Shown here in pieces: positions 19,269-46,654 of a DNA stretch of 64,000 nt. The notes under the pieces are model-generated. The model did no database searches. It was given only the letters and a program-made list of their open reading frames with translations, and had not been told where the DNA came from. The stretch lies in assembly GCA_964519305.1 (NCBI GenBank), contig CAZFHY010000012.1, positions 67,446 through 131,445 on the forward strand, read 5' to 3'. Position 1 is the stretch's first letter. The number at the start of each line of letters is the position of its first letter. This stretch comes from Candidatus Undinarchaeota archaeon (GTDB lineage: Archaea > SpSt-1190 > JASMDC01). A program made the position numbers and the translations under genes.

Positions 19269-19392
19269 GACTACCGCGCCGTTAGGAGCCCCATATAAGC
19301 GTTCCCTTGGGGAGCGGGAGGTAGTGAGCTCACAGTCGCTCACTACCAGACATAACAAAGGCCATTTAATATTTCCTGCACTCAGGACCTGT

Positions 19393-24582: not shown

Positions 24583-25155
24583 CTACTCCTCGATGACCTT
24601 GATGGTCGGCCGCATCTTGTAGCTGTCCTTGCCAGCGGCGTGGATCGACTCGGCGGCGTCGAAGTCCAGTGTGAGCACCTTCTCCTTCCCCTCCTCGAGG
24701 GTGAAGGGCTTGATGAGCTTCACCGTACCCGACGATATCTCCAGGTCGTGCTCGGTACCGTCGATGGTCACCTTTGCGCTGTCCACGGTCAAACGGATCT
24801 GCGTGTACTTGCCCGCGGTGAGGTTAGCACTGCCGAGCATCTCCTTGACGCCCTTGATTGCGATCAGGTCGAATGTCTTCGCCTCCTCGACGATGACCGA
24901 CCAGCCGGTCTCGGTCGTTACGTTCGGGTCCTCGTCCGCCGATCCGGCGATGTGGACCTGCACCTTCGAGATGGTCACGATGGCCTTCTCGATGTTCAGT
25001 TCGGGTGGAGCGTCGGTTATCTTCATCGTCAGAGTAGCAAAGCTCCCCGATGTATCTCCGGCGTCCACCTCCGGCGCATCGCCCCCGCTGGTACATCCGG
25101 TGACGGCCACGAGGCCGATGAGCAGCAGCGCTGCGATCAGTGTGTTCCTTTCCAT
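24583..25155 (-). CDS. DUF4382-like lipoprotein
   Basis: Lipobox VTGC; TMKITDAP, FDL, AGKYTQIRL and LTLDFDA motifs. Confidence 0.85.
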   Translation of the reverse strand: MERNTLIAALLLIGLVAVTGCTSGGDAPEVDAGDTSGSFATLTMKITDAPPELNIEKAIVTISKVQVHIAGSADEDPNVTTETGWSVIVEEAKTFDLIAIKGVKEMLGSANLTAGKYTQIRLTVDSAKVTIDGTEHDLEISSGTVKLIKPFTLEEGKEKVLTLDFDAAESIHAAGKDSYKMRPTIKVIEE

Positions 25156-25265
25156 GTTGTTCAGCTCTTTAACATGCCCGCCTTGGCCACCAGGGGCAGG
25201 TACCCGGCTCGACATCGAGCTTTAAATGAGTATTGTCGGGGTGAAGAATCGAAAAAAGGGTGAGA

Positions 25266-25319: not shown

Positions 25320-25859
25320 CTATTCCTGGATGATCTTGATGGTCGGCTTCAGCTGGTACTTGTCGCCAGCAGCGTGGATCGACTCGGCAGCATCGAAGTC
25401 CAGGGTCAGAACTGTCTCCTGGTCCGCAACGATATCGAAACCCTTGGTAAGCTTGAGCTTGTCCGAGGGTACGTTGAGATCGTGCTCGGTGCCGTCGATG
25501 GTCACCTTTGCGCTGTCAAGGCTCAGGCGGACCTGAGTGTACTTACCGGCCTCGAGGTCGGCGGTACCCAGCATCTCCTTGACGCCCTTTATCTCGATAA
25601 GGTCAAAGGTCTTGGACTCCTCGACCACAGTGTGCCATCCGGCCTCCATGGTGGCGTTGGGGTCCTCATCGGCCCCGCCAGCCTTGTGCACCTGGATCTT
25701 GGAGAGGGTCACTACGGCCTTCTCGATGTTCAGCTTGGGGGGCGCGTCCGTGATCTTCATGGTGAGCGTCCCGGTGCTTCCACCTTCCCCGCCAGTGCAG
25801 CCTGAGAGGGCCACGATACTGACGAGCAGCAGCGCTGCGATCATTGTGTTCTTTTCCAT
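25320..25859 (-). CDS. DUF4382-like lipoprotein (tandem paralogue)
   Basis: Lipobox LSGC; highly similar to 24583..25155. Confidence 0.85.
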   Translation of the reverse strand: MEKNTMIAALLLVSIVALSGCTGGEGGSTGTLTMKITDAPPKLNIEKAVVTLSKIQVHKAGGADEDPNATMEAGWHTVVEESKTFDLIEIKGVKEMLGTADLEAGKYTQVRLSLDSAKVTIDGTEHDLNVPSDKLKLTKGFDIVADQETVLTLDFDAAESIHAAGDKYQLKPTIKIIQE

Positions 25860-25958
25860 ATCTTCCAACTCACATAGCGCCCTTCCTTTGCCACCGTAGG
25901 CCGCTGGTCGGGCCTGTGACCTCTAGCATTTAAGAACTTATGTTCGAGTGGCCTCATC

Positions 25959-26444
25959 ATGGACCCTGACCCCGGGACACAAGGGATCACCGTACGTCCA
26001 CTGGACCCCGCCGACCGTGACGATGTGTCCTCTGTCATCGAGCTCGACCGGGCCTTCACCACAGAGTTCTTCCCCGACAGGGTCTGGGACGGCGACGGAC
26101 GGGAACGCGAGCTGTGCGAGAGCCTTGCGAGGGGCGAGCGCGTGGTGGTGGCCTGCGATGGCGAACGCGTCATCGGGGCCGCATGGTACAGGTTCACCCG
26201 CGACCGGTGGAGCGGCGAGCAGGTGTGCCGCCTCTCCTTCATCGCCGTCGACCGGGACGCTCGTAACAAGGGTGTGGGTCGGTCGCTGATGGACCACGTC
26301 AAGGCCGATGCACAGCACGAGGGATGCTCCGTTCTGGAAGTATCGGTGAACTATGGCAACGACCGGGCCGCCGGTTTCTACGAGCTCTGTGGCTTCGTCC
26401 CCGCGCGGCGCGTGCTCCGTCTCCCCTTAAAAACCAAGCTATAA
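25959..26444 (+). CDS. GNAT family N-acetyltransferase
   Basis: IAVDRDARNKGVGRSLM and N..AAGFYELCGF motifs. Confidence 0.9.
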   Translation: MDPDPGTQGITVRPLDPADRDDVSSVIELDRAFTTEFFPDRVWDGDGRERELCESLARGERVVVACDGERVIGAAWYRFTRDRWSGEQVCRLSFIAVDRDARNKGVGRSLMDHVKADAQHEGCSVLEVSVNYGNDRAAGFYELCGFVPARRVLRLPLKTKL

Positions 26445-26510
26445 AAAACACGAGCGCGGATTGTACTCCTAGCAGGTAGAAGAAGGTCTATCGAGCGGAG
26501 GGTACTGATA

Positions 26511-29500
26511 GTGGAAGGACCGGTCGGGAAGCGTGGTATTCTTCTTCTACTTACTGCGCTCCTCGTCCTGTACCTTCTGCCCGCCCCAGGCCTTGCCGCC
26601 TGCGATCCCGCATGTAACGACTGTCAGGACTGCGTCAGCGATGCCTGCCAGGCAAAGACCGGCGGTAAATGCTGCGGTGGCACCTGGTACAGCGGGAAGG
26701 ACTGCTGCAACGACAACGACTGCGGTGGATGCGAGAAATGCAGCAACCGCAAGTGCGAGAACGTAGGATGCAGCTCATGCAAGGAGTGCAACAACAACCA
26801 CGGGTGCCAGGACAAGAGCGGCGGTGAGTGCTGCGGGGGTACGTGGTACTCGGGAGGCAATTGCTGCTCGAACTCGGATTGCGGTGCGTGCAAGAAATGC
26901 AACAGCCAGAAGAAGTGCACCGGCTGGAAGTGCGGTGGCGGGGGCTACAGCTGTGCCGTTGGGAGCGCCAACTGGTGCTCGAAGTGCGCCAACAGCAACG
27001 GGGACAACGATGCCAACAGCTGCGTGTGCAAGGGTGGCGTGTGGAAGGCCGACAAGTGCTGCGGCGACGACGGTGCATCGGACGACTATTGCTCGGGCAC
27101 GAACTATTGCTTCGATGGCAGCTGGTATACTAATCCCGATAACAAGAAGTACGGGTGCGAGACCTGCGCTAGCAAGGTATGGCTCAACAGCAAGTGCTGC
27201 GGCGATGACGGTGCGTCGGACGACTACTGTGCTGGCACCGTGAACTTCTGTCTCGATGGCGTAAAGTACACCGATCCTGACAAGAAGAAGTACGGGTGCG
27301 AGACCTGCGCGTCCAAGACCTGGCTCGACAGCAAGTGCTGCGGCGACGATGGCGGTGCCACCGACACCTACTGCGAAGGGACCGGTAAGTACTGTGAGGC
27401 GGGCACCCCACACAACGATCCTGACGAGTCCGAGTACGGGTGCGTCACCTGCGGGAGCAAGATATGGCTCAGCGACAAGTGCTGCGGTGACGACGGAGGG
27501 ACCACCGACACCTACTGCGGTCCGGTCAACAAGTACTGCGAGTCGGGCGTCTACAAGACGGACTATGATAAATCGTCCTACGGCTGCCAGACCTGCGGCT
27601 CAAAGCTCTGGTCGACCCAGGAAACCACATGCTGCGGTGACGACGGGGCCCCCGACGATTTCTGTGCCGCCACCTCGTCCTGGTACTGCCTGACCGGGTC
27701 CAAGACCGTGGACGGCGATGACTCGGCGAACGCGTGCACCTGCATCTTCGGTGCCGACCACTGGGCCCGCTCCACGTGCTGCGATGATCAGGGGGAGGAC
27801 TTCTGCCAGAGCGCCACCTCCGGTGCAGGCACTTGGTACTGCGACGACGGTACACGTGAGCCCGATGCCGACACGAGCCAGCCCGCCTGCGACTGCGAGG
27901 CCGGTGCCAACCTCTACACCAACAAGAACAGCGGTAGCAAGCGCTGCTGTGGTGGCAACGCCGAGGAGGCGGGGGAGACCTGGTGCGAGAGCCCGACGGC
28001 GGGCAGCGGCACCTGGTACTGCGACGGCGCCGTGCGAATGGATGACGCCGACTATAAGCAGGAGTACTGCGACTGCGAGGCCGGCCTGAACCTCTTCACG
28101 GCAAAGAACGCAGGTGCCAACAAGTGCTGCGGCGGCGTCAACGAGGAGGCCGGAGAGACATGGTGCGAGAGCCCTACTGCTGGTAGCGGTGACTGGTACT
28201 GCGAGAGTGCTACTCGCAAGGACGATGCCGATGCCAAGGTTGAGTACTGTGACTGCGAGGCCGGCCTCAACCTCTACACCACGAACAACGCGGGCTCGAA
28301 CAAGTGCTGCGGGGGGACCAATGAGGAGGCCGGCGAGACATGGTGCGAGAACCCTACGAACGGTGCCGGCACCTGGTACTGTGACGGCGCCGTGCGAATG
28401 GACGATGCCGACTACAAAAAGGAGTACTGCGACTGCGAAGCGGGCACCAGTCTTTACTCGGCCAAGAACAGTGGTGCGAACAAATGCTGCGGCGGTGTCA
28501 ACGAGGAGCCCGGCGAGATATGGTGCGAGAGCCCTACGCCCGGTGAGGGCGACTGGTATTGCGAGGGCGCCGTGCGAATGGACGACGCCGACGCGAAGAA
28601 GGAGTACTGCGACTGCGAGGCAGGGCTCCGTCTCTACTCCACGAAGAACAGCGGCGCGAGCATGTGCTGCGGGGGAACCAACGAGGAGGCCGGGGAAACT
28701 TGGTGCGAGAGCCCCACGCCCGGGGACGGCGACTGGTACTGCGAGAACGCTGTGCGCATGGACGATGCCGATGCGAAGCTGGCCTACTGTAACTGTGAAG
28801 CAGGAGAGAACCTCTACACAACCAAGAACAGCGGGGCGAACCGATGCTGCGGCGGAGTGGTTGAAGAGGCAGCCGAGACCTGGTGCGAGAGCCCGACGGC
28901 AGGCAGCGGTACCTGGTACTGTGACGGCGCGGTGCGCATGGACGATGCCGACGTGAAGCAGGCCTACTGCGACTGCGAGGCCGGGCAGGAGCTCTACTCG
29001 ACCAAGAACAGCGGCGCCGATAAGTGCTGTGGTGGCGTCAACGAAGAGGCCGGCGAGACATGGTGCGAGAGCACAAGGATCGGTGACGGCGCATGGTACT
29101 GCGACAATGCTGTGCGCAAGGACGATGCCGATGCCAAGATAGAATACTGCGAGTGCGAGGCCGGGGAGGACCTTTACACCGTTGATAACGCGGGCGACGA
29201 CCGGTGCTGCAGTGGTGACGTCGGCGAGGTGGACACCTGGTGCTCGAACCCAGTGCCCGGTGGCGGGGAGTGGTACTGTGACACCAACGTCCGCAAGGAC
29301 GACGCCGACCTTAAGCGCGAGTACTGCGACTGCGAGGCGGGTCCCGACCTCTACTCGGACAAGAACGGGGGACCGTTCAAGTGCTGCGGCGGTGTCAACG
29401 AGGAGGCAGGGGAGAGCTGGTGCGAAAGCCCGACCCCCGGTGACGGTGCGTGGTACTGCGACAACGCAGTGCGCGAGGACAACTCCGATGACAAGAAGGA

Positions 29501-32500
29501 GTACTGTGACTGCAAGGCCGGACAGAACCTCTTCACGACCGACAATCCGTCCGGGGAGAACCGCTGCTGCGGTGGCGACCCGGAGACCGATACCTGGTGC
29601 TCGGCACCGTTGTATGGCTCACAGAACTGGTACTGTCACGAGAACCAGAGGACCGACGAGGCAGACTTCGACCAGCCCGCGTGCCAGTGCATGACGCCCA
29701 ACGGCTGGTGGTTCATGAGCGTCGACGACGACATCGAAACGTGCTGCGGCGATGATTTGGGGGAGAGCTGGTGCGGCCTAGAGTCCGATGGCTACTGCCT
29801 CCAGGCGGCCTGGTTCCCCGTCGCCGATTACGACGATGACGAGCACTTCTGCACTGCTTGCGCGGGCAACATCTGGGAGGCGCTCTACGACCTCTCGGAC
29901 GAGGATTGCTGCGGGGATGATCCGGGAGAGTCCTGGTGCGGTGACCGGGGCTACTGCCTCGATGGCGTATGGCATCCCGTCGCCGATCCTGACGATGACG
30001 CCCATTACTGCGAGCAATGCGTGGAGGAGGAGTGGCGCGAGGGAACGTGCTGCGGCGACGACGAGGACGAGAAGTGGTGCGGCACCGCCGGCTACTGCTA
30101 TCATGGCGACTACCACCCGGCCTTCGGCCTTGAGGTGTTCGCCCGCGAGACCCCCGTCTACGCAGAAGAGGCCTGTGCCCTCGATCCCCTCCGCGATCCT
30201 TTCAACCAGGGCGCCTGCGCTGAGAGCAAGACCTACGAGGTGTTCCCCGGCGCGTCCCTGGACATCAACGTGTTCACCTGCTCGCTGCTCGGATGCCATT
30301 GCACCTACCCACGCTTTGACCTTTTCGACACATACCAGGGCCTCACCTATCTCAAAGGCAGGTACCAGGACCTCCCCCAGGAACTGGGCTACGCGACCCA
30401 CATCAGGCTCAACGCCACGGGCGAACGCGTCAGGGTCTCGGCAACGACGGACCAGTGCTTCTATTCGGCGGTCACCCTCTCCTACCCGACCACGATGTGC
30501 GAGGTCTGCGATCGCACGGACGGGTGCTTCGACCATATCGACAAGTGCCAGGTGCGGCAGACACAGTGCCACTTCTGCCTGTTCCACCCAGAGAACTGCA
30601 CCGATGAGCTCATCGGCGGGCTGGAGGGCTGCCTGTACACCGACGCGTCCAACAACAACCGGTGTCTCAAGTGCGCACGTCACCTACAGACCTGTCAGCG
30701 TTGCCTGGACGACGAGGAGTGCCGTGAGCACTTCGACCTCTGCATCGACAACACACAGATCTGCGATGGATTGCTCAACACGGACATGATCACCTTCCCG
30801 GAGTGCTTCTTCGGTGGGCTCACTGCGTGTCGCGAGACCCTCATGGCACTGGCAGGTCGTGCGGCGCTCCTGTGCGAGTTCGCCGACGACGACCTTGCCA
30901 AGGTAGTCTTCATGTGCAACGTCCCGCTGGGTCTCGGCTACCGGTTCGAGGACGTGAACAACCGCTTCGCTGCCCGCAGGTACGCCAACATCCTCCCGCT
31001 GGCGAAGAAGAAGGAGCTCACCAGGATGCTCGGGCCCGCTATCAACGAGATGGTAGCGAACGCTGCTGGCGAGACCGCTGTCCTTGCCGCCCAGCTCCAG
31101 GACAGGTTCCCGAAGCTCGCCCGGTCGCTCAACTCGACAATCGCGCTCAACAGATCGATCAAGGACACTGCCACCGAGATCGACTTCAATATCGAAGAGG
31201 ACCTCTCGAAGGCGCTCGATTACGGTGTGGTGGCCCTTTACCGGCTCACCACCACCCAGGAGTACGCCCGCACCGCCGGTGCCATGGACTCCGCCCTCTT
31301 CATGCTCGAACGGATCGAGGACCGCGTCCGCTCCCTGGACAACATCCGTGCCATCATCAGCAACCGGACCATCGAACAGTCCTTTGCCAAGGCACAACTG
31401 ACCGACCTCCCGCCGGATGAGCTCATGAGCACTGTGACCTCGCTCCGCGTCCTGGTGGGTATGGTCGACACAGTGTTCGACGTGGACGAGACGAAGGTGG
31501 CGCACGACCGGCTAGCCGAACAGGAGGGTCGGCTCCGGGACGCTATCCTGGCCACGACCGCCTCCGGCGTCGCCGTGGACACCGCCTTCATGGACGAAGT
31601 GCGGTCCAAGGTAGCGCAGGTCGCAGCAGGATGGGTGACCATCTCCATCACCGAGCGCGAATCCTACAGGCTGGAGGTGGAGCCCGATGACGTGTTGAAG
31701 ACCGCCCTGGCGCTTAAACGGCGGAAGGACATCCTCGGATTCAACCTCACAGAGGAGAACCTGATCGCCGTCACCGTCCCCGCTCTCGTTGAGATCAGCG
31801 TCCCCGGTGGGATCGATTACTACTGGTCGCTGTTCACCGTCAGGCTCTACAACGCCCGGGGCCAGGCCATGGAGGACTTGGTGGTGCCCTACCGCGTGAA
31901 GAAGGGAGTGACCCACAGCATCGAGGAGCTCCACTTCGACCGGAAGGTGAAGGTCCTCGACGCCGTGTCCCTGGTGGCATGGGAGGCGCCGCTACTTGAA
32001 GTGGATGATGTCCTCGAGCTGAAGTTCGTGGCCAAGAAAGGTCTGTGCCGGACCATCGCGGACTGCAAGGAGGGAGAGATATGCGACAATATCCATCCAC
32101 TGGGGGTCTGCAACACCGAGTGCACGGCGTGCGGTACCGTGTGCGACTCGGGCGATCCCGCGTACGAGGTGTGCAACGGTAAGGGCGCATGCGTGGCCGA
32201 GAGCGCCCGGCTCGAGAAGGGACAGGCCTGTCAGTGCAACGAGATCTGTGCATCCAACCTGTGCACCATGGGGGTGTGCTGCGCCAAGGGGGAGTTCGCG
32301 GACCCGATCAACATGATTTGCACGAACAAGCTCAACCTCCTGCTCATCTCGGAGACGCAGTTCGAGATCAACCTTGGCGGTTCGTACGTCGTCCCCGTCC
32401 ATATCGCCAATCCATCGGGCGTAGCAAAGACGTTCACCGTTCGGGCCAGCGGTGTGCTCGCGGACAACGTCATGATCTTCCGCCCGACCTTCGTGCTCCA

Positions 32501-32765
32501 GCCCTGGGAGTACCGTCAGCTCCTCCTCCAGGTGACCGGGATCATCTCGGGGAAGCGGACGCTGGTCATCGATGTAGAGGAAAAGGACGGCGAACTACGC
32601 GACTCCGGCGCTATCGACGTGCTTGTCCGTGCGCCCGCCCAGGCCCTTGGCGTGGAAATGCGCACAGCTCCGGGCCTGACCGCAGCCCACCTCGCCCTGC
32701 TCGGCCTCCTGTCAGCTGCAGCGGTCGTGAGGAAACCTATTTATTCACAGCGAGGGAGGGTATAG
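26511..32765 (+). CDS. Giant Cys-rich repeat surface protein (2084 aa) with a C-terminal APGL-TM-basic anchor
   Basis: Signal peptide, CCGDD/CCGG tandem repeats, helical segment, Ig-like terminal domain and a PGF-CTERM-like tail. Confidence 0.85.
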   Translation: MEGPVGKRGILLLLTALLVLYLLPAPGLAACDPACNDCQDCVSDACQAKTGGKCCGGTWYSGKDCCNDNDCGGCEKCSNRKCENVGCSSCKECNNNHGCQDKSGGECCGGTWYSGGNCCSNSDCGACKKCNSQKKCTGWKCGGGGYSCAVGSANWCSKCANSNGDNDANSCVCKGGVWKADKCCGDDGASDDYCSGTNYCFDGSWYTNPDNKKYGCETCASKVWLNSKCCGDDGASDDYCAGTVNFCLDGVKYTDPDKKKYGCETCASKTWLDSKCCGDDGGATDTYCEGTGKYCEAGTPHNDPDESEYGCVTCGSKIWLSDKCCGDDGGTTDTYCGPVNKYCESGVYKTDYDKSSYGCQTCGSKLWSTQETTCCGDDGAPDDFCAATSSWYCLTGSKTVDGDDSANACTCIFGADHWARSTCCDDQGEDFCQSATSGAGTWYCDDGTREPDADTSQPACDCEAGANLYTNKNSGSKRCCGGNAEEAGETWCESPTAGSGTWYCDGAVRMDDADYKQEYCDCEAGLNLFTAKNAGANKCCGGVNEEAGETWCESPTAGSGDWYCESATRKDDADAKVEYCDCEAGLNLYTTNNAGSNKCCGGTNEEAGETWCENPTNGAGTWYCDGAVRMDDADYKKEYCDCEAGTSLYSAKNSGANKCCGGVNEEPGEIWCESPTPGEGDWYCEGAVRMDDADAKKEYCDCEAGLRLYSTKNSGASMCCGGTNEEAGETWCESPTPGDGDWYCENAVRMDDADAKLAYCNCEAGENLYTTKNSGANRCCGGVVEEAAETWCESPTAGSGTWYCDGAVRMDDADVKQAYCDCEAGQELYSTKNSGADKCCGGVNEEAGETWCESTRIGDGAWYCDNAVRKDDADAKIEYCECEAGEDLYTVDNAGDDRCCSGDVGEVDTWCSNPVPGGGEWYCDTNVRKDDADLKREYCDCEAGPDLYSDKNGGPFKCCGGVNEEAGESWCESPTPGDGAWYCDNAVREDNSDDKKEYCDCKAGQNLFTTDNPSGENRCCGGDPETDTWCSAPLYGSQNWYCHENQRTDEADFDQPACQCMTPNGWWFMSVDDDIETCCGDDLGESWCGLESDGYCLQAAWFPVADYDDDEHFCTACAGNIWEALYDLSDEDCCGDDPGESWCGDRGYCLDGVWHPVADPDDDAHYCEQCVEEEWREGTCCGDDEDEKWCGTAGYCYHGDYHPAFGLEVFARETPVYAEEACALDPLRDPFNQGACAESKTYEVFPGASLDINVFTCSLLGCHCTYPRFDLFDTYQGLTYLKGRYQDLPQELGYATHIRLNATGERVRVSATTDQCFYSAVTLSYPTTMCEVCDRTDGCFDHIDKCQVRQTQCHFCLFHPENCTDELIGGLEGCLYTDASNNNRCLKCARHLQTCQRCLDDEECREHFDLCIDNTQICDGLLNTDMITFPECFFGGLTACRETLMALAGRAALLCEFADDDLAKVVFMCNVPLGLGYRFEDVNNRFAARRYANILPLAKKKELTRMLGPAINEMVANAAGETAVLAAQLQDRFPKLARSLNSTIALNRSIKDTATEIDFNIEEDLSKALDYGVVALYRLTTTQEYARTAGAMDSALFMLERIEDRVRSLDNIRAIISNRTIEQSFAKAQLTDLPPDELMSTVTSLRVLVGMVDTVFDVDETKVAHDRLAEQEGRLRDAILATTASGVAVDTAFMDEVRSKVAQVAAGWVTISITERESYRLEVEPDDVLKTALALKRRKDILGFNLTEENLIAVTVPALVEISVPGGIDYYWSLFTVRLYNARGQAMEDLVVPYRVKKGVTHSIEELHFDRKVKVLDAVSLVAWEAPLLEVDDVLELKFVAKKGLCRTIADCKEGEICDNIHPLGVCNTECTACGTVCDSGDPAYEVCNGKGACVAESARLEKGQACQCNEICASNLCTMGVCCAKGEFADPINMICTNKLNLLLISETQFEINLGGSYVVPVHIANPSGVAKTFTVRASGVLADNVMIFRPTFVLQPWEYRQLLLQVTGIISGKRTLVIDVEEKDGELRDSGAIDVLVRAPAQALGVEMRTAPGLTAAHLALLGLLSAAAVVRKPIYSQRGRV
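27055..29750 (+). repeat. Intragenic tandem repeats: about five or six ~46-50-aa CCGDDG units, then about ten 60-aa (180-nt) CCGG units
   Basis: CCGG codons recur every 180 nt at about 27945, 28125, 28305, 28485, 28665, 28845 and 29025. Confidence 0.85.
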
Positions 32766-32767
32766 CT

Positions 32768-35700
32768 GTGGTCGCGTTCCGTCGTCTAGCGGTCCTGCTC
32801 ATCCCGCTCCTGCTCGTGACGGCGACCGGCATCACCGCCTGCGAGGGCGTCGACCTCTCCCGGCTCGACTCCAGCAGCTTCAGAGCGTGCGCCCCGTACA
32901 AGGACCTCTTCTTGGAGTACATGGGCAAGTACGGCGTCGACAAGATCATCGATCCTGTGATGCTCATGGCCCAGGTGATCAGGGAGTCATCGTGCAGGGC
33001 CCAGGTCAACTGCGGGGGTATCATGCAGGTCGACCATCCCTGCAGGGTCGACAAGGGGTCCCCCGACTACTGCCGATGCAAGACCGACGTCCGGTTCGGT
33101 ATCGATCTTGGGATGAAGCACCTCAAGGGGAGTCTGGACAGGGCGAAGAACATGGGCGCGAACGAGGACGAAGTGCTCACCCTCATCCTGTTCGGGTACA
33201 ACCGGGGCAACGGCGCCATGGCCAAGGCCATCGAGTACCGTAAGCAGGGGATGTCCCTCGCCGACGCCATGATGAAGTCGTGCGTCCACTATTACGGCCC
33301 GGGCACCAAGTGGAACAACGTCGACTACTACTGCAAGAAGACAGGGACCGTCTATCCCGAGAAGATCTACCGGAGCTTCCGGAAGGCGTGCAAGGAGCTC
33401 GGGGGCACACCCGCCGACGTCCCTGCTCTCTCTCCCGCCGCCGGCACGGTCAACTGCCCGGACTACCTCACCAACAGCAAGTGGGCCTGGCCCCTCAAGG
33501 GCAGGATCACATCCCGGTTCGGACCGCGTCCCAAGCCCTGCGCCGACTGCAGCTCCTACCACCACGGGCTCGACATCGCACAGACCACCGGCACGCCCAT
33601 CGTCGCCGCGGGCGCCGGCAAGATCAAGTACGCCGCGTGGGCCACGGGCTACGGTAACGTCGTGTACATCGACCACGGCAAGAACGTCGAGACACGGTAC
33701 GGTCACTCATCCAAGCTTCTGGTCGCTTCCGGCCAGGACGTCAGTCAGGGCCAGCAGATCGCTCTCGTTGGTAGCACAGGATACTCCACGGGGCCGCATC
33801 TCCACTTCGAGATCCGGGTGAACAACAAGGCGATCGACCCGCTCCCCGAGCTTGAGTCCGGGAGCGCTGGTTCAGTGGACCCGCGTAACGACATCGACGG
33901 GGATGGCATCTGTAACAACTTCGACGACGATATGGACGGCGACTCCATCCCCAACTCCCAGGATCACGACATCGACGGCGACGGAACGCCCAACACCCTT
34001 GACGGTGACAACGACAACGACGGCCTCCCCGACGACCAGGAGGTCGAGGACTGCCGGTACCTCTACGACTGCGACGGGGATAGCATCCCGGACTCCACCG
34101 ACGCAGATCCCCGGGTCACCAACCTCGATCTGGACGGGGATTGCATCCCCAACGCCCAGGACGACGACTGGGACAACGACGGGACGCCCAACGGCGAGGA
34201 CGATGCCAACGCCAATCCCTGCGCCGGTTGCCAGGTGATGGCCGGGACCAAGGGCGGAGGTGACAGTACGAGGGTGGAGATGTGCGTGACCGGTCCCTGC
34301 GACACGGCCAAGTGCATGGACCACCTCGAATCATCGATGCCGGCAGGTGCACAGAGCGCGCCCGCCATGGCCACGACCGCCACTGGCGCCATCATCCCGG
34401 GCACCCTCGAGTTCACCACCATCCCTTACCTGGGTACGAACTGCGAGCCTGACAGCGCTCAGCGCGCCAGCGTGGCCGTGGACCCCATCGAGCCGGGCGC
34501 CCAGGCGTCCGTGAGCCTTGATACTTCACTGCTCACCTGTCCTGACCGGACGTACGACAACATCAACGAGTACCGCGCCGACCTCATCGAGACGCTGGGC
34601 AAGATGAAGCAGTTCTACATGGCGCTAAAAGACCATCTCGTCGTGCTCGAGGACGCGCTCAGGAAGCAGGAGAAGCAGTGCGAGGAGGCCATCAGACAGT
34701 TCGCTGGGGACTATACTTCCTGCGACCAGCTGACGCTCGATCCCGAGGGCGTGGCGAGCCCCGAGTTCACACCCACCGTGTGCGCGGAGATGGCGGGCAA
34801 GGCCTGCCCTGCCGATCTCGCCGTCTGCCTCAAGGACGCCCGGCCCGGTGACGCCCTGAAGAAGGCAAAGGAGTGCTCGCTGTGCATCGTGCTCCCCTGC
34901 TGTCCCGGGACGGGGTGCGCAGCCGGCGTCGATGCCGCTGACACCACGCGATGCGGCCCGGGGGATATCGATCCTGTCGAGGGCGAGTGTAGGTACACCT
35001 CCACGGACACGTGCGAGGAGGGGTGCCCGGCGGCCATGCGGACGGTACCGTCCAGCGGCTGCACCCTCACACCGAAGGAAGAGGGTGACGGCGGCGACCT
35101 CGGCGTCACCTCGTGCGAGGTATCCGGCCAGTCGCTAACCGTCTCCTGCTGCCACGAGAAGGACGACGACGGGTGCAAGGACGGCGAGCGGTTCACTGAT
35201 ACTGACGAGTGCTCGGCCGTCGTGGTCTCGAAGGAGAAGCGCGAGCACGCACTGGTCTTCCCCCGCACTCTGGAGGAGTGCTACCAGAAGGCCGTGGACA
35301 CCAAGGACCTGTGCACCGTGGAGGGCTCGGCCGTTCTCGGTGGTGGACGGACGCACAGCCCCGGCCATGTCGCGGACGCCATCGGCCGCGCGGTCCGGTT
35401 CCTCGAGCACTACGACAAGGTCTACCCGTCCCTCGAAGCGAAGATGCGCGAGCTTGCTGCGGCCGAGGAGGAGAACCTGCGCCAGGGCGCGGCAACGACC
35501 CGCAAGGACACAATCGAAATACTCCTTGGCATAGAGCGAAGCTCCAACGAGCTCGCTACCAACGGTGAGACCACACTGGGACAGTTCCAGAAGCTGACGG
35601 CCGATCTCGTAGGTCTTGCCGGCGACAACGAGTTCAAGAACGACGTGAGCGGGACCCATACCCAGGAGGCTGGAGGGCTCAGCACGTTCACGGTCAAGGC

Positions 35701-38700
35701 CACCGAGGGATGGAAGAGTGCCGAACTGTGCATGTTCGACGGGACCGTGGACACACCGGTGTTCGACGACGAGTGCGTGCTCACCGGACCTTCGACCCTC
35801 CAGGAGATCACTAACGTGGCGAACGACCTCTCCTGTGAGGGGTGCTCTAAGGAGAACAAGCACGTCGGCCGGTGCCTCCAGGAGCCCGAGGCCGTCACGG
35901 TCCGCGAGACCAACCTGGACGTGTGGCCGGACGCCCCGCTGACGAGCCTCGTGTCCATGGGCAGGCTGGACCCGCAAGCGATATTCCTTGACTCACAGAA
36001 CTGCTTCGACTACCGGGGTCCCCCTTCATCCTCACCGGGAACGGGTCCGGGTGGCGAGAGCGACCAGTGCTCACTGGTGTGCGGTTCCATGGGCGCCTCC
36101 CAGGGACACTGTCATCCCGAACTGGGAGTGTGCGTGTGCCAGGTCGAAGGCCTCCAGCAGATCACCGATGCCACCTGTGACGAGCGGGTGGACTCGGCGC
36201 TGGCTGCCAAGCTCGCTGCATGCTGCGAGAAGATGGTGGGCGAGACGGCCGGTGTCGAGACGTTCAAGGGAGCGACGAGGACCGATTCGGACAAGGCGGA
36301 CGCAGTGTGCACGACAGCACGGGAGTACCTGGGATGGAACTACGAGATGTCCACCAAGGTACCGTACTGCTCCGGCGGGACGTGCTATATCGACTGCTCA
36401 TCGCTCACCCAGCAAGTGTTCAAGAAGCACGGGGTGAACATCCCACGCACAGCATCGGCACAGTTCGAGTGGTGCCGTAAGAAGGGCAAGCTGGTTGACG
36501 AGCCTGTGCGCGGCGATGCCATCTACTTCAAGAACACCTACAAGCAGGGGATATCCCACACGGGCATCTGGCTAGGTGATGGAAAGTACCTCCACGCTGC
36601 CGGCCGGAAGTACGGTGTCATCATCAGCACCCTCACACCCGCCAAGAAGGCCAAGAACTGGGCCGGGGCCTGCCGGCTCATCGGGGACGTGACCACAACG
36701 GGTACATCCTCGAAGGTGACCTTCGGCCTGTGCAAGGACGGTTCCGGCGACCTGTGCTGCACCGGTCGCGGGCTCGAGGCCGAGAAGCACATCACCGCAG
36801 AGACCTGCGACGTGACCTGCGAGGACATGTGCTCGGTCAAGCACACCGCCGGATCGGAGGAGGCGCTGCGATGCGTGGCCAAGTGCGCGGGGAACACCTG
36901 CCTCGGACGGACCGACGGGACCGAATGCGAGGGCGGGATGTGCTGCAAGGGCCAGTGCGTGCCCGGTGCCTCGACGTGCGATGGCGAGCCGTGCGAGGAG
37001 GAGGACAGGGCATGCTCCGGCGGTTGGTGCTGCGACCTGTTGTGCGTACCGGACGCCACCGCCTGCACCACGGACACCTGTGCCGAGGCCACGGACGGTA
37101 CCGAGTGCGAGGGCGGGCTCTGTTGTGAGCACCGGTGCGTCCCCGGCGCCCTGGCCTGCTCCACCGAGTGCGCGGGCAAGGGCCAGGGTGACGCGTGCAA
37201 GGACGTGGAGGGGCTCTGCTGCGATACCACATGCATCCCTGATGCCCTTTCCTGCGGGACCGAGGACGAGCAGTGCGACGTTCACGAGAGCATCTCCTGC
37301 GCCGCAGGGGCCGAGGAGGGCCTGTGCTGCGACAAGAAATGCGTGCCTGGGGCCACCGCCTGCTCGGGCTCCCCTGCCTGCGTTGACAAGGCGGACGGTC
37401 AGGACTGCGAGGGTGGCGTCTGCTGCCTCGGCGTGTGCGTGGCCGAGGCGGAGGGCTGCTCGGACGAGGACCGGTGCCAGACCATCTGCTTCGACCGGTT
37501 CCCTGACGACGTCGACTCGGCCAGGTTGTGCACGGTCCGCTGCAACGAGATCAACGTGACCTGCGAGAGGACATGCCTAGAGAACCTCGAGGGCATGGAC
37601 TGCGTCTCCTCGTGCGGTGACGGGCTCGACAACGACGGCGATGGCGACATCGACGAGGACATGGTAAACACTATCGATGATGACGGCGACGGCCGTCTCG
37701 ACGAGGACGGCTCAGGCCACGACATCCCACAGTCCGCCATCCATTGCATGGCGCAGTGCCTCCCGGTCGAGGCCACGGGGCCCTCTGCACGCATCATCTC
37801 CTGTATCAAGGCCTGTCGCGCCCTGGCCCCCTCGCTGCGGCTCAGCGTCGCGTTCGCCGACGACGTCCACGCTGTTCTGCCAGGAGAGAAGGTGAACATC
37901 ACAGCACGCGTGGAGAACACCGGTGTGTTCCCCTTCGAGGGCTCTATCGATATGGAGGTCGACAAGCTGTTCACCTGCACCTGTCCGGAGAACGGCGGGT
38001 GCTCGTGCATGAAGACCACGGTGTTCGTGTCCGACGAGAACTTCCAGCTCGAGGCACGGGACAACCTGACGCTGAACAGCGATCCGCTCGAGGCCGACCG
38101 ACAGGGGAACATCCGGTTCCTGCGTCCCAAGGCGTCGATCTCATCGTACGCGGGCGATGCTGTGGTGTCCGAGATGGGCGAGCTCGCGACCGTGCTCGAC
38201 GTGGGTACCGTGCGCGACGGATCGTTCATCCTCCTCCCGGAGAACACCACGGTCCGCGAGGCGTATCCAGGGGACACCGTGGCGGGCGTCGTGGTCGTCG
38301 AGGGCGAGGGGCAGCTCACCGTTACCCGGACGATCACCCATGACGGGAACATGCTCGACAGCACGAAGAGCGAGAGCGCAGCGACCATAGGGCCCGATGG
38401 GACGTCTGAGCTCCACACAAGGACGTACACCGTCCCTGCGGCGATGGACGGTGCCACGCTAGGTCTCCACGCGGAGGTCATAAACGCCACTGACCACGTG
38501 CTCTTCCGCGACGAGCTGCACTCCGTGGCAGGGGACAATCCGTGCACGGGCTCCACCGTGACCCACGCCTGCCTCGACCACGACAATCCGAAGGTCTACG
38601 CCGATGCGCGATTGAAGGTCATGGCGTTCGACCTCACGCTCACATACGCGTTCTTCATAGACAAGGACGACCGCCCCGTCAGCCGTTCGGGCGGAGCGCT

Positions 38701-39250
38701 CGACGTACGTGCTGCGATAGAGCTCCAGAACTGGCTCCCGCGTCCGTTCTCGGGCAAGGTCGAGATCTCTGTGGTCACCGAGAGCGGCGAGGTGCTCCAC
38801 GCAGGCAACCACTCGGTCGATCTCGCGGCCTACATCAAGGCCGATGTGCTCGTACCACAGGAGAGCGCGTCGCTGGTCTCGGACCCCGTCAACGTACCGG
38901 CCGACACGACCGCGCTCATCAGGATCGTCGCCCGTACCGATAACGGGAGCGTGTGGCTCGACATGATCGTCCCCTCCGACCTGTTCCCCGAGTCTCGTCT
39001 GGTGGTCATGGAGCAGACCGAGTTCGGCGACATCGACATCGATGCGTCCATCGTGTACGGCGACTGTAAGCTCAAGGTGACAGCGAAACGCTGCCTGGAC
39101 ACGTGCGAGCTCCACGTGGACAAGGACGTGTGCACGATCGAGCCCAAGGAGTGCGGGTGCATCCCCATCGTCGAGCGCGTGGTGCCGCAGGCCGAACTGC
39201 CGGAGAGCGAGGGGACTGGAGATGACGGTGGTGACGATGAGACCTCGTGA
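32768..39250 (+). CDS. Giant secreted multi-domain peptidoglycan hydrolase: SLT/lysozyme-like, M23 peptidase, TSP3 repeats, NlpC/P60, Cys-rich repeats and beta-sandwich domains (2160 aa)
   Basis: SLT: IRESS..GIMQV..GYNRG. M23: HHGLD, YGH, STGPHLHFE. NlpC/P60: IDCSSL...SHTGIWLGDGKYLHA. GTG 32768 follows a GGAGG RBS and begins a signal peptide. Confidence 0.88.
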   Translation: MVAFRRLAVLLIPLLLVTATGITACEGVDLSRLDSSSFRACAPYKDLFLEYMGKYGVDKIIDPVMLMAQVIRESSCRAQVNCGGIMQVDHPCRVDKGSPDYCRCKTDVRFGIDLGMKHLKGSLDRAKNMGANEDEVLTLILFGYNRGNGAMAKAIEYRKQGMSLADAMMKSCVHYYGPGTKWNNVDYYCKKTGTVYPEKIYRSFRKACKELGGTPADVPALSPAAGTVNCPDYLTNSKWAWPLKGRITSRFGPRPKPCADCSSYHHGLDIAQTTGTPIVAAGAGKIKYAAWATGYGNVVYIDHGKNVETRYGHSSKLLVASGQDVSQGQQIALVGSTGYSTGPHLHFEIRVNNKAIDPLPELESGSAGSVDPRNDIDGDGICNNFDDDMDGDSIPNSQDHDIDGDGTPNTLDGDNDNDGLPDDQEVEDCRYLYDCDGDSIPDSTDADPRVTNLDLDGDCIPNAQDDDWDNDGTPNGEDDANANPCAGCQVMAGTKGGGDSTRVEMCVTGPCDTAKCMDHLESSMPAGAQSAPAMATTATGAIIPGTLEFTTIPYLGTNCEPDSAQRASVAVDPIEPGAQASVSLDTSLLTCPDRTYDNINEYRADLIETLGKMKQFYMALKDHLVVLEDALRKQEKQCEEAIRQFAGDYTSCDQLTLDPEGVASPEFTPTVCAEMAGKACPADLAVCLKDARPGDALKKAKECSLCIVLPCCPGTGCAAGVDAADTTRCGPGDIDPVEGECRYTSTDTCEEGCPAAMRTVPSSGCTLTPKEEGDGGDLGVTSCEVSGQSLTVSCCHEKDDDGCKDGERFTDTDECSAVVVSKEKREHALVFPRTLEECYQKAVDTKDLCTVEGSAVLGGGRTHSPGHVADAIGRAVRFLEHYDKVYPSLEAKMRELAAAEEENLRQGAATTRKDTIEILLGIERSSNELATNGETTLGQFQKLTADLVGLAGDNEFKNDVSGTHTQEAGGLSTFTVKATEGWKSAELCMFDGTVDTPVFDDECVLTGPSTLQEITNVANDLSCEGCSKENKHVGRCLQEPEAVTVRETNLDVWPDAPLTSLVSMGRLDPQAIFLDSQNCFDYRGPPSSSPGTGPGGESDQCSLVCGSMGASQGHCHPELGVCVCQVEGLQQITDATCDERVDSALAAKLAACCEKMVGETAGVETFKGATRTDSDKADAVCTTAREYLGWNYEMSTKVPYCSGGTCYIDCSSLTQQVFKKHGVNIPRTASAQFEWCRKKGKLVDEPVRGDAIYFKNTYKQGISHTGIWLGDGKYLHAAGRKYGVIISTLTPAKKAKNWAGACRLIGDVTTTGTSSKVTFGLCKDGSGDLCCTGRGLEAEKHITAETCDVTCEDMCSVKHTAGSEEALRCVAKCAGNTCLGRTDGTECEGGMCCKGQCVPGASTCDGEPCEEEDRACSGGWCCDLLCVPDATACTTDTCAEATDGTECEGGLCCEHRCVPGALACSTECAGKGQGDACKDVEGLCCDTTCIPDALSCGTEDEQCDVHESISCAAGAEEGLCCDKKCVPGATACSGSPACVDKADGQDCEGGVCCLGVCVAEAEGCSDEDRCQTICFDRFPDDVDSARLCTVRCNEINVTCERTCLENLEGMDCVSSCGDGLDNDGDGDIDEDMVNTIDDDGDGRLDEDGSGHDIPQSAIHCMAQCLPVEATGPSARIISCIKACRALAPSLRLSVAFADDVHAVLPGEKVNITARVENTGVFPFEGSIDMEVDKLFTCTCPENGGCSCMKTTVFVSDENFQLEARDNLTLNSDPLEADRQGNIRFLRPKASISSYAGDAVVSEMGELATVLDVGTVRDGSFILLPENTTVREAYPGDTVAGVVVVEGEGQLTVTRTITHDGNMLDSTKSESAATIGPDGTSELHTRTYTVPAAMDGATLGLHAEVINATDHVLFRDELHSVAGDNPCTGSTVTHACLDHDNPKVYADARLKVMAFDLTLTYAFFIDKDDRPVSRSGGALDVRAAIELQNWLPRPFSGKVEISVVTESGEVLHAGNHSVDLAAYIKADVLVPQESASLVSDPVNVPADTTALIRIVARTDNGSVWLDMIVPSDLFPESRLVVMEQTEFGDIDIDASIVYGDCKLKVTAKRCLDTCELHVDKDVCTIEPKECGCIPIVERVVPQAELPESEGTGDDGGDDETS

Positions 39251-40058
39251 CGGTGCCGTCCTGACGATCATCGCGCTCATCCTTCTATCGGGATGCCTGC
39301 AGGGCGACCCGCAGAGCGGTGAGGACGTGGAGCCAGTTGTTGTATCGAAAGCACCGGCAGAGACGCTCAAGGCAACAGGTGAGGACTGTCGCGAACATGC
39401 AGAGTGCGCCTCGAACGCATGCGACCACTACAAGGCCGACATGGGCAGGTGTGTAAAGTCACCGTGCACACCTGGTGACCGGACGGACAATAACAACCTG
39501 TTCTGCAGCGGGGCCAGCGCATGGGAGACTTCGAAGAAGAGCGGGGAAGCATGCGATTCCGACTTCCAGTGCTTCGAACCGACCTGCTTCATGGTGCCCA
39601 CCTGCCAGCTCACGGACATCCCGCGGACCCGGGCTTTGTGTCACGATGGACGGTGCGTGCTCGAGGTGAGCGGCGACGGCTGCGGGCCCGAGGGCGGGAA
39701 ACGCGTGCTGCGCAAGGACCAGTACTCGCTACTCGAGGACGGGACCTGCATGGAGAGCATGGCCCAGATGGAGCTGCCGACCGTATGCGCTCCCTGCGGG
39801 AACGGCGTGTGCGACGAGGAACTGGAGTCGCTGTGCAACTGCCCTGAGGACTGCACGGGGGCGGAAGAGGCTCCCGTCAGTTCGTATCTTGCATGCGGGT
39901 GCGGGTGTTGCGGTGAGGAACCACAGCAGGAATGCCTCTATCGTTCCAAGGGGGACGACCTTTCAAAGATCATCGAAGAGGACAAGAAAGCAGGCCTGGG
40001 CCCGGATTGCGCCGTGATGGGTTGCAGCCTCGGCATTAACTATACCTACTGCGATTGA
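39237..40058 (+). CDS. Cys-rich lipoprotein
   Basis: Lipobox LSGC; CGNGVCD..ES.CNCPEDC and CGCGCCG modules; overlaps the stop of the previous gene. Confidence 0.78.
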   Translation: MRPRDGAVLTIIALILLSGCLQGDPQSGEDVEPVVVSKAPAETLKATGEDCREHAECASNACDHYKADMGRCVKSPCTPGDRTDNNNLFCSGASAWETSKKSGEACDSDFQCFEPTCFMVPTCQLTDIPRTRALCHDGRCVLEVSGDGCGPEGGKRVLRKDQYSLLEDGTCMESMAQMELPTVCAPCGNGVCDEELESLCNCPEDCTGAEEAPVSSYLACGCGCCGEEPQQECLYRSKGDDLSKIIEEDKKAGLGPDCAVMGCSLGINYTYCD

Positions 40059-46254: not shown

Positions 46255-46605
46255 ATGGACAGGAGATATCTCGCGGCAGTACTGGTCGTTGCAGCCCTCC
46301 TGGCCGGATGCTCCTCCCCGCCCGTCCCGCCCGAGGAGTGCACGGGGACCGGGGCCGAGCAGGCAGCGTGCGTCGGTAAGTACGTTGCCTATACCGGCGA
46401 CCTCGCCCCCTGCTGGAAGCTGGATGCCCCACACGATTTCACGTGCGCGCGTCAGGGCTATACAACGCGTAACGATCCCAACCTCTGCACGTCCATCCCC
46501 GCGGACAGGACGACCTGCCGCCAGGACTGTATAGTGTACTTCGGTGCCATCATGGAGGGTGGTGCGGGGGACGCAGCGGCGACCCCTGTCAAAGTGGTCC
46601 CGTGA
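46255..46605 (+). CDS. Small Cys-rich lipoprotein
   Basis: Lipobox LAGC; regularly spaced cysteines. Confidence 0.7.
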   Translation: MDRRYLAAVLVVAALLAGCSSPPVPPEECTGTGAEQAACVGKYVAYTGDLAPCWKLDAPHDFTCARQGYTTRNDPNLCTSIPADRTTCRQDCIVYFGAIMEGGAGDAAATPVKVVP

Positions 46606-46654
46606 CGCGACTATCACGCAAAACGATTTAATCCATACAGGCAACTGGTCAGCC

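Follow-up and report, generated by a model that had tools for sequence, protein, structure and literature searches.

The gene trio and the murein hydrolase domains of gene 2

The window, i.e. the whole 64,000-nucleotide (nt) stretch of DNA analysed here, belongs to a genome of 3.63 Mb (42 contigs, 99.83% complete) and codes for fibrillarin and Nop5, which identify it as archaeal. Its central part contains three co-directional plus-strand genes, designated gene 1, gene 2, and gene 3 and located by open reading frame (ORF) calling at 26511-32765, 32768-39250, and 39222-40058, respectively, of which the second codes for a giant protein with three predicted murein-cutting domains. The eight sequencing runs listed for the stretch, which may be its source, are all of marine or seawater DNA and come from two studies; no RNA run is listed. 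In public databases, entries for the sister species and for paralogs bear the lineage label 'Candidatus Undinarchaeales archaeon'.

The tight coupling of the trio, claimed in the original prediction made from this sequence without database searches, agrees with the coordinates. Gene 1 (2084 amino acids, aa) starts with GTG and gene 2 with a GTG placed after the TAG of gene 1, the junction reading TAG-CT-GTG with a gap of 2 nt, while gene 3 (278 aa) overlaps gene 2 by 29 nt when read from its first ATG, or by 14 nt when read from an alternative ATG at 39237. A Shine-Dalgarno-like run, GGGAGGG, lies 8-14 nt upstream of the gene 2 GTG, and that of gene 1 is preceded at 8 nt by GGAGGG. No plus-strand terminator-like site was found inside the trio block; one is located ca. 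210 nt downstream of gene 3. The genes and the features of gene 2 are as follows.

26428..26449, plus strand: A/T-rich boxes (TTAAAAACC, TATAAAAAAC) ca. 60 nt upstream of gene 1, read from the sequence; a candidate archaeal promoter element
26511..32765, plus strand: gene 1, predicted secreted protein of cysteine repeats, with a membrane-anchor signal at its C-terminus (ORF, translation)
32768..39250, plus strand: gene 2, predicted exported triple murein hydrolase of 2160 aa on a lineage-specific scaffold (ORF, Pfam, NCBIfam, and PDB sequence searches)
32882..33457, plus strand: SLT-like (GH23-type) lytic transglycosylase domain, residues ~39-230 of gene 2 (motifs, PF01464, block alignment)
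33557..33841, plus strand: peptidase M23 domain, residues 264-358 (PF01551, 117.6 bits versus a cut-off of 28.7)
33863..34267, plus strand: Asp-rich calcium-binding-type repeats, residues 366-500 (five DxDxDG motifs)
34517..36262, plus strand: scaffold modules M1 (residues 584-720) and M2 (residues ~815-1165), common to most paralogs (BLASTP)
36362..36664, plus strand: NlpC/P60 domain, residues 1199-1299 (PF00877, 64.2 bits versus a cut-off of 23)
36698..37447, plus strand: cysteine-rich repeats, residues 1311-1560, similar to repeats in paralogs on contigs C7 and C3
37448..39160, plus strand: C-terminal core, residues 1561-2131 (alignment of 22 paralogs)
39222..40058, plus strand: gene 3, predicted cysteine-rich lipoprotein of 278 aa (lipobox LLSGC)

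All three genes are under purifying selection, the ratio of nonsynonymous to synonymous substitutions (dN/dS), computed against the sister species at a dS of 0.44-0.59, being 0.10 for gene 1, 0.12 for gene 2, and 0.18 for gene 3. Across every domain of gene 2 it stays between 0.05 and 0.18.

The predicted M23 and NlpC/P60 domains of gene 2 are securely assigned. The zinc ligands of M23 peptidases lie in HxxxD and HxH motifs, and NlpC/P60 enzymes have a triad of Cys, His, and His or another polar residue. The former are present in gene 2 as H265-H-G-L-D269 and H344-L-H346, and the latter as C1210 in DCSS, H1264 in SHTG, and H1276 in LHAA. Sequence matches of the M23 domain in the PDB reach down to 9.5e-23, and those of the NlpC/P60 domain include Tn916-like cell wall hydrolases and LytE. 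The Asp-rich repeats which follow the M23 domain resemble, we assume, thrombospondin type 3 repeats.

The N-terminal domain of gene 2 is more divergent. SLT/GH23 enzymes have their catalytic Glu in an E-S motif, accompanied by GLMQ-like and AYNxG-like motifs, and the corresponding residues of gene 2 are E73-S74, GIMQV (84-88), and YNRG (144-147); the E, the S, G-I-M-Q-V, and N-R-G are unchanged in all seven aligned SLT-like sequences. All seven aligned relatives of the domain match PF01464 at E<=1, the best at 1.8e-6. Moreover, a single alignment block (34% identity over 329 columns, E 4e-34) joins residues 44-359 of gene 2 to the SLT-M23 end of P0012, a protein of 1228 aa with Amidase_2, NlpC/P60, SLT, and M23 domains, whose SLT domain scores 24.6 bits, above the cut-off. 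Because of these motifs, the PF01464 matches of the relatives, and the block alignment with P0012, the N-terminal domain is accepted as a putative divergent lytic transglycosylase, and the single-block alignment suggests that SLT and M23 were acquired together, in one piece. P0012, with its four murein-cutting domains, is the closest relative of this block outside the lineage.

The architecture of P0012 is presumably typical of phage or conjugation lysins, and the resemblance of the SLT-M23 block to it, together with the Tn916-like hydrolases found among the closest solved relatives of the NlpC/P60 domain, raises the question of whether gene 2 is a lysin left behind by a phage or a bacterial mobile element, once associated with a tail or with conjugation and now without function in the archaeon. 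That is very improbable, and the reading is already disfavoured: every domain of gene 2 is under strong purifying selection and the SLT-M23 block is built into a scaffold peculiar to the lineage, while no tRNA was found in the 64,000-nt window and no phage or conjugation family among those neighbours in it that were scanned against Pfam.

Neither a Mur ligase (PF08245) nor a penicillin-binding protein transpeptidase (PF00905) was found in the 99.83%-complete genome, whereas among the 14 genomes searched as controls PF08245 was recovered in 12 and PF00905 in 10. The substrate of gene 2 should therefore be foreign murein. The proposal that gene 2 is a hydrolase for bacterial walls is thus supported by its domains, by their intact motifs, and by the lack of detectable murein synthesis genes in the host, and the C-terminus, acidic and devoid of a hydrophobic segment, conforms to the expectation that gene 2 carries no C-terminal anchor. 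The hydrophobic segment at its N-terminus closes with ITAC, which is lipobox-like, a lipobox being the pattern [LVI][ASTVI][GAS]C where such a segment ends.

At a probability of roughly 60%, we regard gene 2 as an exported, disulfide-stabilised enzyme attacking the murein of nearby bacteria at three bonds, for killing or feeding. The protein would be exported, folded oxidatively, and active outside the cell on bacterial murein, where the SLT-like domain would cut the glycan strand, the M23 domain the peptide cross-links, and the NlpC/P60 domain the stem peptide. The three catalytic modules would have been grafted onto a lineage-specific scaffold, in which M1 and M2 are joined to four beta-sandwich domains and a cysteine knot. 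The genus would use this scaffold in the 22 paralogs described below for the display of different payloads (lectins and FG-GAP domains besides murein hydrolases), gene 2 being one of seven weapons or feeding tools on the common chassis. Gene 2 might be held on the cell by the lipobox-like N-terminus that it carries itself, by gene 1, or by gene 3. What we infer here is that the protein leaves the cell and stays on its surface, which walls it targets, and any contact within the trio.

Several points weigh against this reading. The SLT-like domain of gene 2 scores 17.5 bits on PF01464, under the cut-off of 21.3, and its profile found no match, by sequence, among solved structures. No LysM, PG_binding, or SH3 wall-binding domain was matched in gene 2 in Pfam at E<=0.01. 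M23 domains occur in 13 of the 61 archaeal genomes searched, so the presence of M23 by itself is not special. The export of the trio proteins is predicted from the N-terminal hydrophobic segments which all three carry, and the enzyme activity, expression, and location of gene 2 are likewise predictions from sequence, from which antagonism and feeding are not separable.

The same domains might instead serve symbiosis, by opening a local hole in the wall of a bacterial partner so as to attach to it or to exchange with it, a role proposed for small archaea that live as episymbionts. The lineage shares its label with the small-genome DPANN order Undinarchaeales in public records, and in a family of the same class (f4) M23 matches are found in all four genomes, some of them in giant ORFs. 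Nevertheless, the genomes of the genus, at 3.6-3.8 Mb, are unlike those of its class relatives (0.6-1.2 Mb), and three different lytic activities per protein look destructive rather than local, which makes such a use quite unlikely.

The scaffold family of gene 2

BLASTP against all ORFs of the genome assigns gene 2 to a family of 22 members, gene 2 included, of 1081-2846 aa and with N-terminal hydrophobic segments. C11_18595_27057 was dropped from the family, as it matches gene 2 only in the Asp-rich repeats (51 bits). The C-terminal core of ca. 570 aa ends in a cysteine pattern, C.L.V.C..C...CEL.VD...C......C.C.C, invariant across the 22 paralogs. In its AlphaFold model (mean pLDDT 80.3) a short Cys-rich helical stretch is followed by about four beta-sandwich domains, with a cysteine knot at the end. 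In Foldseek the core comes closest to the MG/Ig arrays of A2M, C3, and C5 and to bacterial adhesin extenders, with TM scores that reach only 0.15-0.25, and on the model the core is a generic stalk whose kinship with the matched arrays is not implied; a true relationship with A2M was rejected as unproven on the same scores.

The domains carried by the family vary. Murein hydrolase domains are present in seven of the 22 members (M23 in four, NlpC/P60 in four, and SLT-like in four), one hydrolase-bearing paralog showing also a weak glucosaminidase match, while one member has FG-GAP repeats and another one three C-type lectin domains; in 13 no Pfam domain was found at E<=0.001. On the tree of the core the hydrolase label requires four changes, at least two of which are forced by well-supported branches. 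This is suggestive of payload swapping across the family, and only suggestive, because gene 2 forms a long, poorly placed branch.

The distribution of the scaffold is narrow. A profile search with the core against 1.84 billion cluster representatives returned 61 at E<=0.001, 28 of them at E<=1e-30. In the ten clusters examined, the only NCBI names bearing an organism are 'Candidatus Undinarchaeales archaeon' and 'Methanopyri archaeon', the remaining members being two ocean-survey fragments and entries that are nameless or called 'hypothetical protein'. Among the 61 archaeal genomes searched the scaffold was found only in the genome under study and in that of the sister species.

Thirteen of the 22 scaffold genes lie, in eight cassettes, directly beside a conserved pair of genes coding for proteins of ca. 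940 and ca. 600 aa. The cassettes are located on contigs C1, C2, C7 (twice), C10, C15, C19, and C20 of the genome (G000), an example being L019:6574-11177. The ca. 600-aa partner begins with a pilin-type RGQ/RAQ-hydrophobic signal, and neither partner has a match in Pfam. Gene 2 of the window is without this pair, gene 1 and gene 3 standing in its place. Gene 1 and gene 3 were tried as kin of the two partners and rejected, the hhalign probability being below 1%.

These observations permit a broader, tentative proposal, which we consider doubtful as a whole, that the family is a payload-display system of a DPANN-labelled predator or grazer of bacteria. It would combine a chassis (M1, M2, beta-sandwich domains, and knot) with separately encoded surface anchors and exchangeable heads, the anchors being gene 1 in the window and the pilin-like pair in the eight cassettes, and the heads three kinds of murein hydrolase, lectins, and FG-GAP domains; anchors and heads are parts of the joint claim and share its doubt.

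The composition of the family bears also on scavenging, in which the hydrolases would digest the murein of detritus and dead cells for peptides and amino sugars. Many giant secreted proteins built on the same scaffold, some with lectin-type payloads, would suit it, and the seven hydrolase-bearing paralogs suggest a broad substrate range. Since neither AnmK nor MurQ was found above the cut-off in the genome, there is no dedicated route for the anhydro-MurNAc released by a lytic transglycosylase; the argument is weak, the use of peptides or GlcNAc being still possible. Scavenging is a live alternative, though held to be unlikely, and an attack on the murein of nearby bacteria, to kill or to feed, is the explanation retained.

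Gene 1, gene 3, and the neighbourhood of the trio

The features of gene 1 and gene 3, and those of the genes around the trio, are listed below.

19324-24531, plus strand: A2M homolog with MG, bait, thioester (GCFEQ), and receptor-binding domains
24583-25215 and 25320-25868, minus strand: two DUF4382 lipobox proteins, between the A2M gene and gene 1
26598..30200, plus strand: 21 tandem six-cysteine units, residues 30-1230 of gene 1 (motif count, TRF)
30918..32762, plus strand: anchor module, residues ~1470-2084 of gene 1 (alignment to a 2737-aa paralog, composition heuristic)
32655..32762, plus strand: tail of gene 1, EMRTAPGL, hydrophobic helix, and RK plus nine residues; a candidate archaeosortase-type sorting signal
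39384-39854, plus strand: conserved core of gene 3, residues 55-211 (homolog alignment)
39855-40055, plus strand: genus-specific Cys-rich extension of gene 3, residues 212-278 (homolog alignment)
46544-48271, plus strand: protein with a Sec23/Sec24 trunk
48246-49703, plus strand: WD40 beta-propeller protein

Gene 1 begins with a hydrophobic segment in which LAAC fits the lipobox pattern. The 21 units counted behind it, more than the 15 disulfide-type repeats foreseen as a minimum, comprise two N-terminal ones, five of 46-50 aa, about 11 of ca. 60 aa, and three of 47-55 aa; they are anchored on CC[GSD][GD] and measure 46-76 residues each, nine consecutive ones having 59-61, and TRF finds a period of 180 nt in 9.2 copies. 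Residues 54-106, exactly one unit, are missing in the sister species. Related units are found elsewhere in the genome, in nine further ORFs or more. No match to gene 1 was found in Pfam or among PDB sequences and none that is usable to its repeats in the protein atlas; beyond the genus, the search with its C-terminal half returned only itself and the sister ortholog. A 4130-aa ORF (G000:C11:61164-73556, minus strand) with 15.4% cysteine has an N-terminal module in common with gene 1, and the genome invests heavily in giant disulfide-rich surface proteins.

The anchor module of gene 1 consists of a Cys-free helix-like stretch, a beta region, a Cys-rich stretch, an Ig-like domain, and the tail, and the last ca. 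620 residues are 27% identical to the 2737-aa paralog. The helical regions announced for gene 1 and gene 2 are flagged by a composition heuristic at residues ~1421-1763 of gene 1, which is cysteine-free over 1501-1800, and at residues 592-709 and 861-951 of gene 2. The only structure model of the C-terminal part of gene 1, built from a four-row alignment, has a mean pLDDT of 31 and is unusable, so that helices can be suggested there only cautiously.

The tail of gene 1 can be read in the translation much as described before, with ca. 18 hydrophobic residues between EMRTAPGL and RK. The same pattern of (R)TAPG, helix, and basic cluster is found in four proteins of the genome (gene 1, C3_107607, C13_15364, and C15_53115), two of which have 9-14 residues after the basic cluster. 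A PGF-CTERM identity of this tail is not supported: the NCBIfam scan of gene 1 gave no match to the PGF-CTERM model at E<=0.1, the motif reading APGL. The search for ArtA, suggested at the same time, revealed a single gene of the exosortase/archaeosortase family (G000:C8:91949-92884), whose product passes the general signature TIGR04178 (70.2 bits versus a cut-off of 23) and no subtype model. The best match in the genome to archaeosortase A (TIGR04125) reaches 40.3 bits against a cut-off of 75, the enzyme of Haloferax volcanii having been recovered as the positive control. With neither a PGF-CTERM match nor an enzyme of a known subtype, we regard the tail as a sorting signal that is plausible but belongs to no classified type, and the archaeosortase-family gene together with the four (R)TAPG-tail proteins may form an unnamed sorting system.

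Gene 3 is, as had been stated, a predicted lipoprotein, and in about 16 of 20 aligned homologs a Cys directly follows the hydrophobic N-terminal segment (judged by eye). The family consists of lipoproteins of ca. 200 aa from Woesearchaeota, Iainarchaeum, metagenome-assembled genomes (MAGs) of methanogen orders, candidate-phyla bacteria, and Myxococcota; no usable match to gene 3 was found in the protein atlas. The family core has 16 cysteines and ends in CAPCGNGxCDxxxESxCNCPEDC, and its distribution is scattered, without conserved neighbours. At 15 of 15 loci outside the genus, examined over flanks of up to 8 kb (less at contig ends), neither a relative of gene 1 or gene 2 nor an M23, NlpC/P60, or SLT domain was found, and the neighbours, judged by ORF size and cysteine content only, vary between the loci. 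As the homologs do not lie beside hydrolases at any of the 15 loci, a role of gene 3 as an immunity or inhibitor protein is not favoured.

The A2M homolog lies near the trio, as had been noticed, though as a separate transcription unit, and a protective role of A2M for the operon is pure conjecture. Between it and gene 1 there are the two minus-strand DUF4382 genes and a GNAT gene, while in the sister species the distance is only ca. 550 nt; the DUF4382 pair looks like an insertion or deletion difference between the two species. At residues ~700-1000 the A2M homolog is interrupted by a run of several strongly hydrophobic segments resembling membrane helices, an unusual trait in the A2M family, and A2M paralogs occur elsewhere in the sister genome. 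The search for Dsb-like genes proposed earlier yielded three ORFs with hydrophobic anchor segments and with DsbA-like domains of the thioredoxin type, whose products could oxidise the cysteines of the trio. The sites in these domains are CPFC or CPYC, two of the ORFs having a pair of them; VKOR was not found in the genome.

Conservation of the trio across MAGs, which the original prediction had proposed to examine, extends to the sister species, where the three genes are syntenic (gene 1 91%, gene 2 90%, and gene 3 80% identical), and no trio is found beyond the genus. None of the 21 gene 2 paralogs has gene 1 or gene 3 as a neighbour, and no scaffold-family gene adjoins the three other proteins with an (R)TAPG tail. 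Independent occurrence of the genes in relatives, named beforehand as the finding that would speak against a joint function, is thus seen in part, the gene 3 family standing alone at its 15 other loci.

The joint function proposed was a single contact-dependent apparatus, in which the gene 1 stalk holds gene 2 to bacterial walls, gene 3 sits at the membrane, and A2M shields the assembly from proteases. The 2-nt gap and the overlap, the lack of a terminator-like site within the block, the synteny of the trio and the upstream A2M in the sister species, and the presence of a C-terminal anchor on gene 1 and not on gene 2 are in line with it; so are the cassettes, since the 13 scaffold genes that adjoin the pair of membrane-associated partners indicate that separately encoded anchors may be a rule of the family. 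However, at ca. 90% identity the synteny in the sister species says little, and gene 3 homologs, as well as other proteins with the tail of gene 1, occur apart from the scaffold. Moreover, gene 2 has a lipobox-like N-terminus and a beta-sandwich stalk of its own, and in its own genome genes of the opposite strand separate A2M from gene 1. Such an apparatus is thus improbable. Under the explanation retained for gene 2, gene 1 would be a co-transcribed surface protein, anchored by its tail and exposing 21 disulfide-knotted modules outward, most likely an adhesin or a spacer, and gene 3 a membrane lipoprotein of a wider family.

Downstream of the trio, the gene at 46544-48271 codes for a protein with a Sec23/Sec24 trunk (E 4e-10, above the Pfam cut-off), VWA-type matches, and a below-cut-off Sec23 beta-sandwich, and its end is overlapped by the gene of the WD40 protein. 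The two represent eukaryote-like coat-protein domains in an archaeon of an Undinarchaeales-labelled lineage.

Significance and relation to known systems

The evidence for archaea fighting or eating bacteria is recent and based on a few small enzymes. Here, seven giant proteins predicted to be exported and to cut murein, one of them with three activities, are encoded in one archaeal genome on a chassis named only in a marine lineage. Should these proteins prove active, they would offer a wealth of unusual wall-lytic enzymes and a handle on how an uncultured archaeon of the low-oxygen ocean deals with bacteria. A testable model of how archaeal enzymes may be mounted on the surface is provided by the chassis common to the family and by the anchor-like neighbours that recur beside it, and should the doubtful proposal of payload display be true, a large-genome member of a DPANN-labelled class would be a surface-armed predator or grazer of bacteria. 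Archaeal murein hydrolases themselves have already been published. In the literature searched, with bioRxiv supplements and most subscription journals outside the search, no archaeal protein with M23, NlpC/P60, and SLT domains was found, nor a 22-member display scaffold, recurring anchor-like neighbours, or an (R)TAPG tail.

PrgK-type proteins are, we take it, the multi-hydrolase lysins of Gram-positive conjugation systems. Gene 2 resembles lysins of Gram-positive conjugation systems and phage tails (P0012; PDB 4hpe, 8v3w) in having several murein-cutting domains per chain. They act from the bacterial envelope or the virion, whereas gene 2 is chromosomal in an archaeon and, unlike them, has a predicted signal sequence, a beta-sandwich stalk, and no adjoining secretion-system or phage genes.

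The sorting of PGF-CTERM proteins by archaeosortase A is known from Haloferax volcanii. The genome studied here is similar in having a three-part C-terminal signal on several large surface proteins and an enzyme of the exosortase/archaeosortase family; it differs in the motif, which is (R)TAPG, in the extra residues past the basic cluster, and in the enzyme, which stays below every subtype cut-off. The core of gene 2, predicted to be a string of beta-sandwich domains, is like the Ig/MG stalks of giant adhesins and of A2M/complement proteins, at an identity of 8-13% and TM scores of 0.15-0.25, which indicate a shared domain type and do not imply homology, while nothing among the matches corresponds to its terminal cysteine knot.

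Published work on DPANN archaea has interpreted their large lytic murein transglycosylases as predatory (PMC9723730; PMC10936187). With these proteins gene 2 has in common a GH23/SLT-type domain in a large protein and the reading as an anti-wall tool. In the accessible parts of the two reports, the case rests on single-domain annotation, and M23 and NlpC/P60 on one chain, a paralog family, and partner genes are not mentioned there.

According to the accessible part of a third report, archaeal murein hydrolases kill bacteria, and more than one hydrolase per genome is encoded in only 21 of 175 positive archaeal genomes (PMC12352652). The survey required at least one catalytic domain and at least one known cell-wall-binding domain (Strock et al. 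2025); gene 2, with no wall-binding domain match, falls outside this definition of a modular archaeal peptidoglycan hydrolase. Judging by the same part of the text, gene 2 and Woldo/Danwoldo of Halogranum salarium (PMC12352652) are alike as archaeal signal-bearing proteins with a bacterial-type M23 domain and foreign murein as the presumed target, and domain shuffling recurs in both. Woldo and Danwoldo are described there as having one catalytic domain and a known wall-binding domain, whereas gene 2, without a recognised binding domain, has three catalytic ones, on a chain of 2160 aa that belongs to a lineage-specific scaffold of 22 members.

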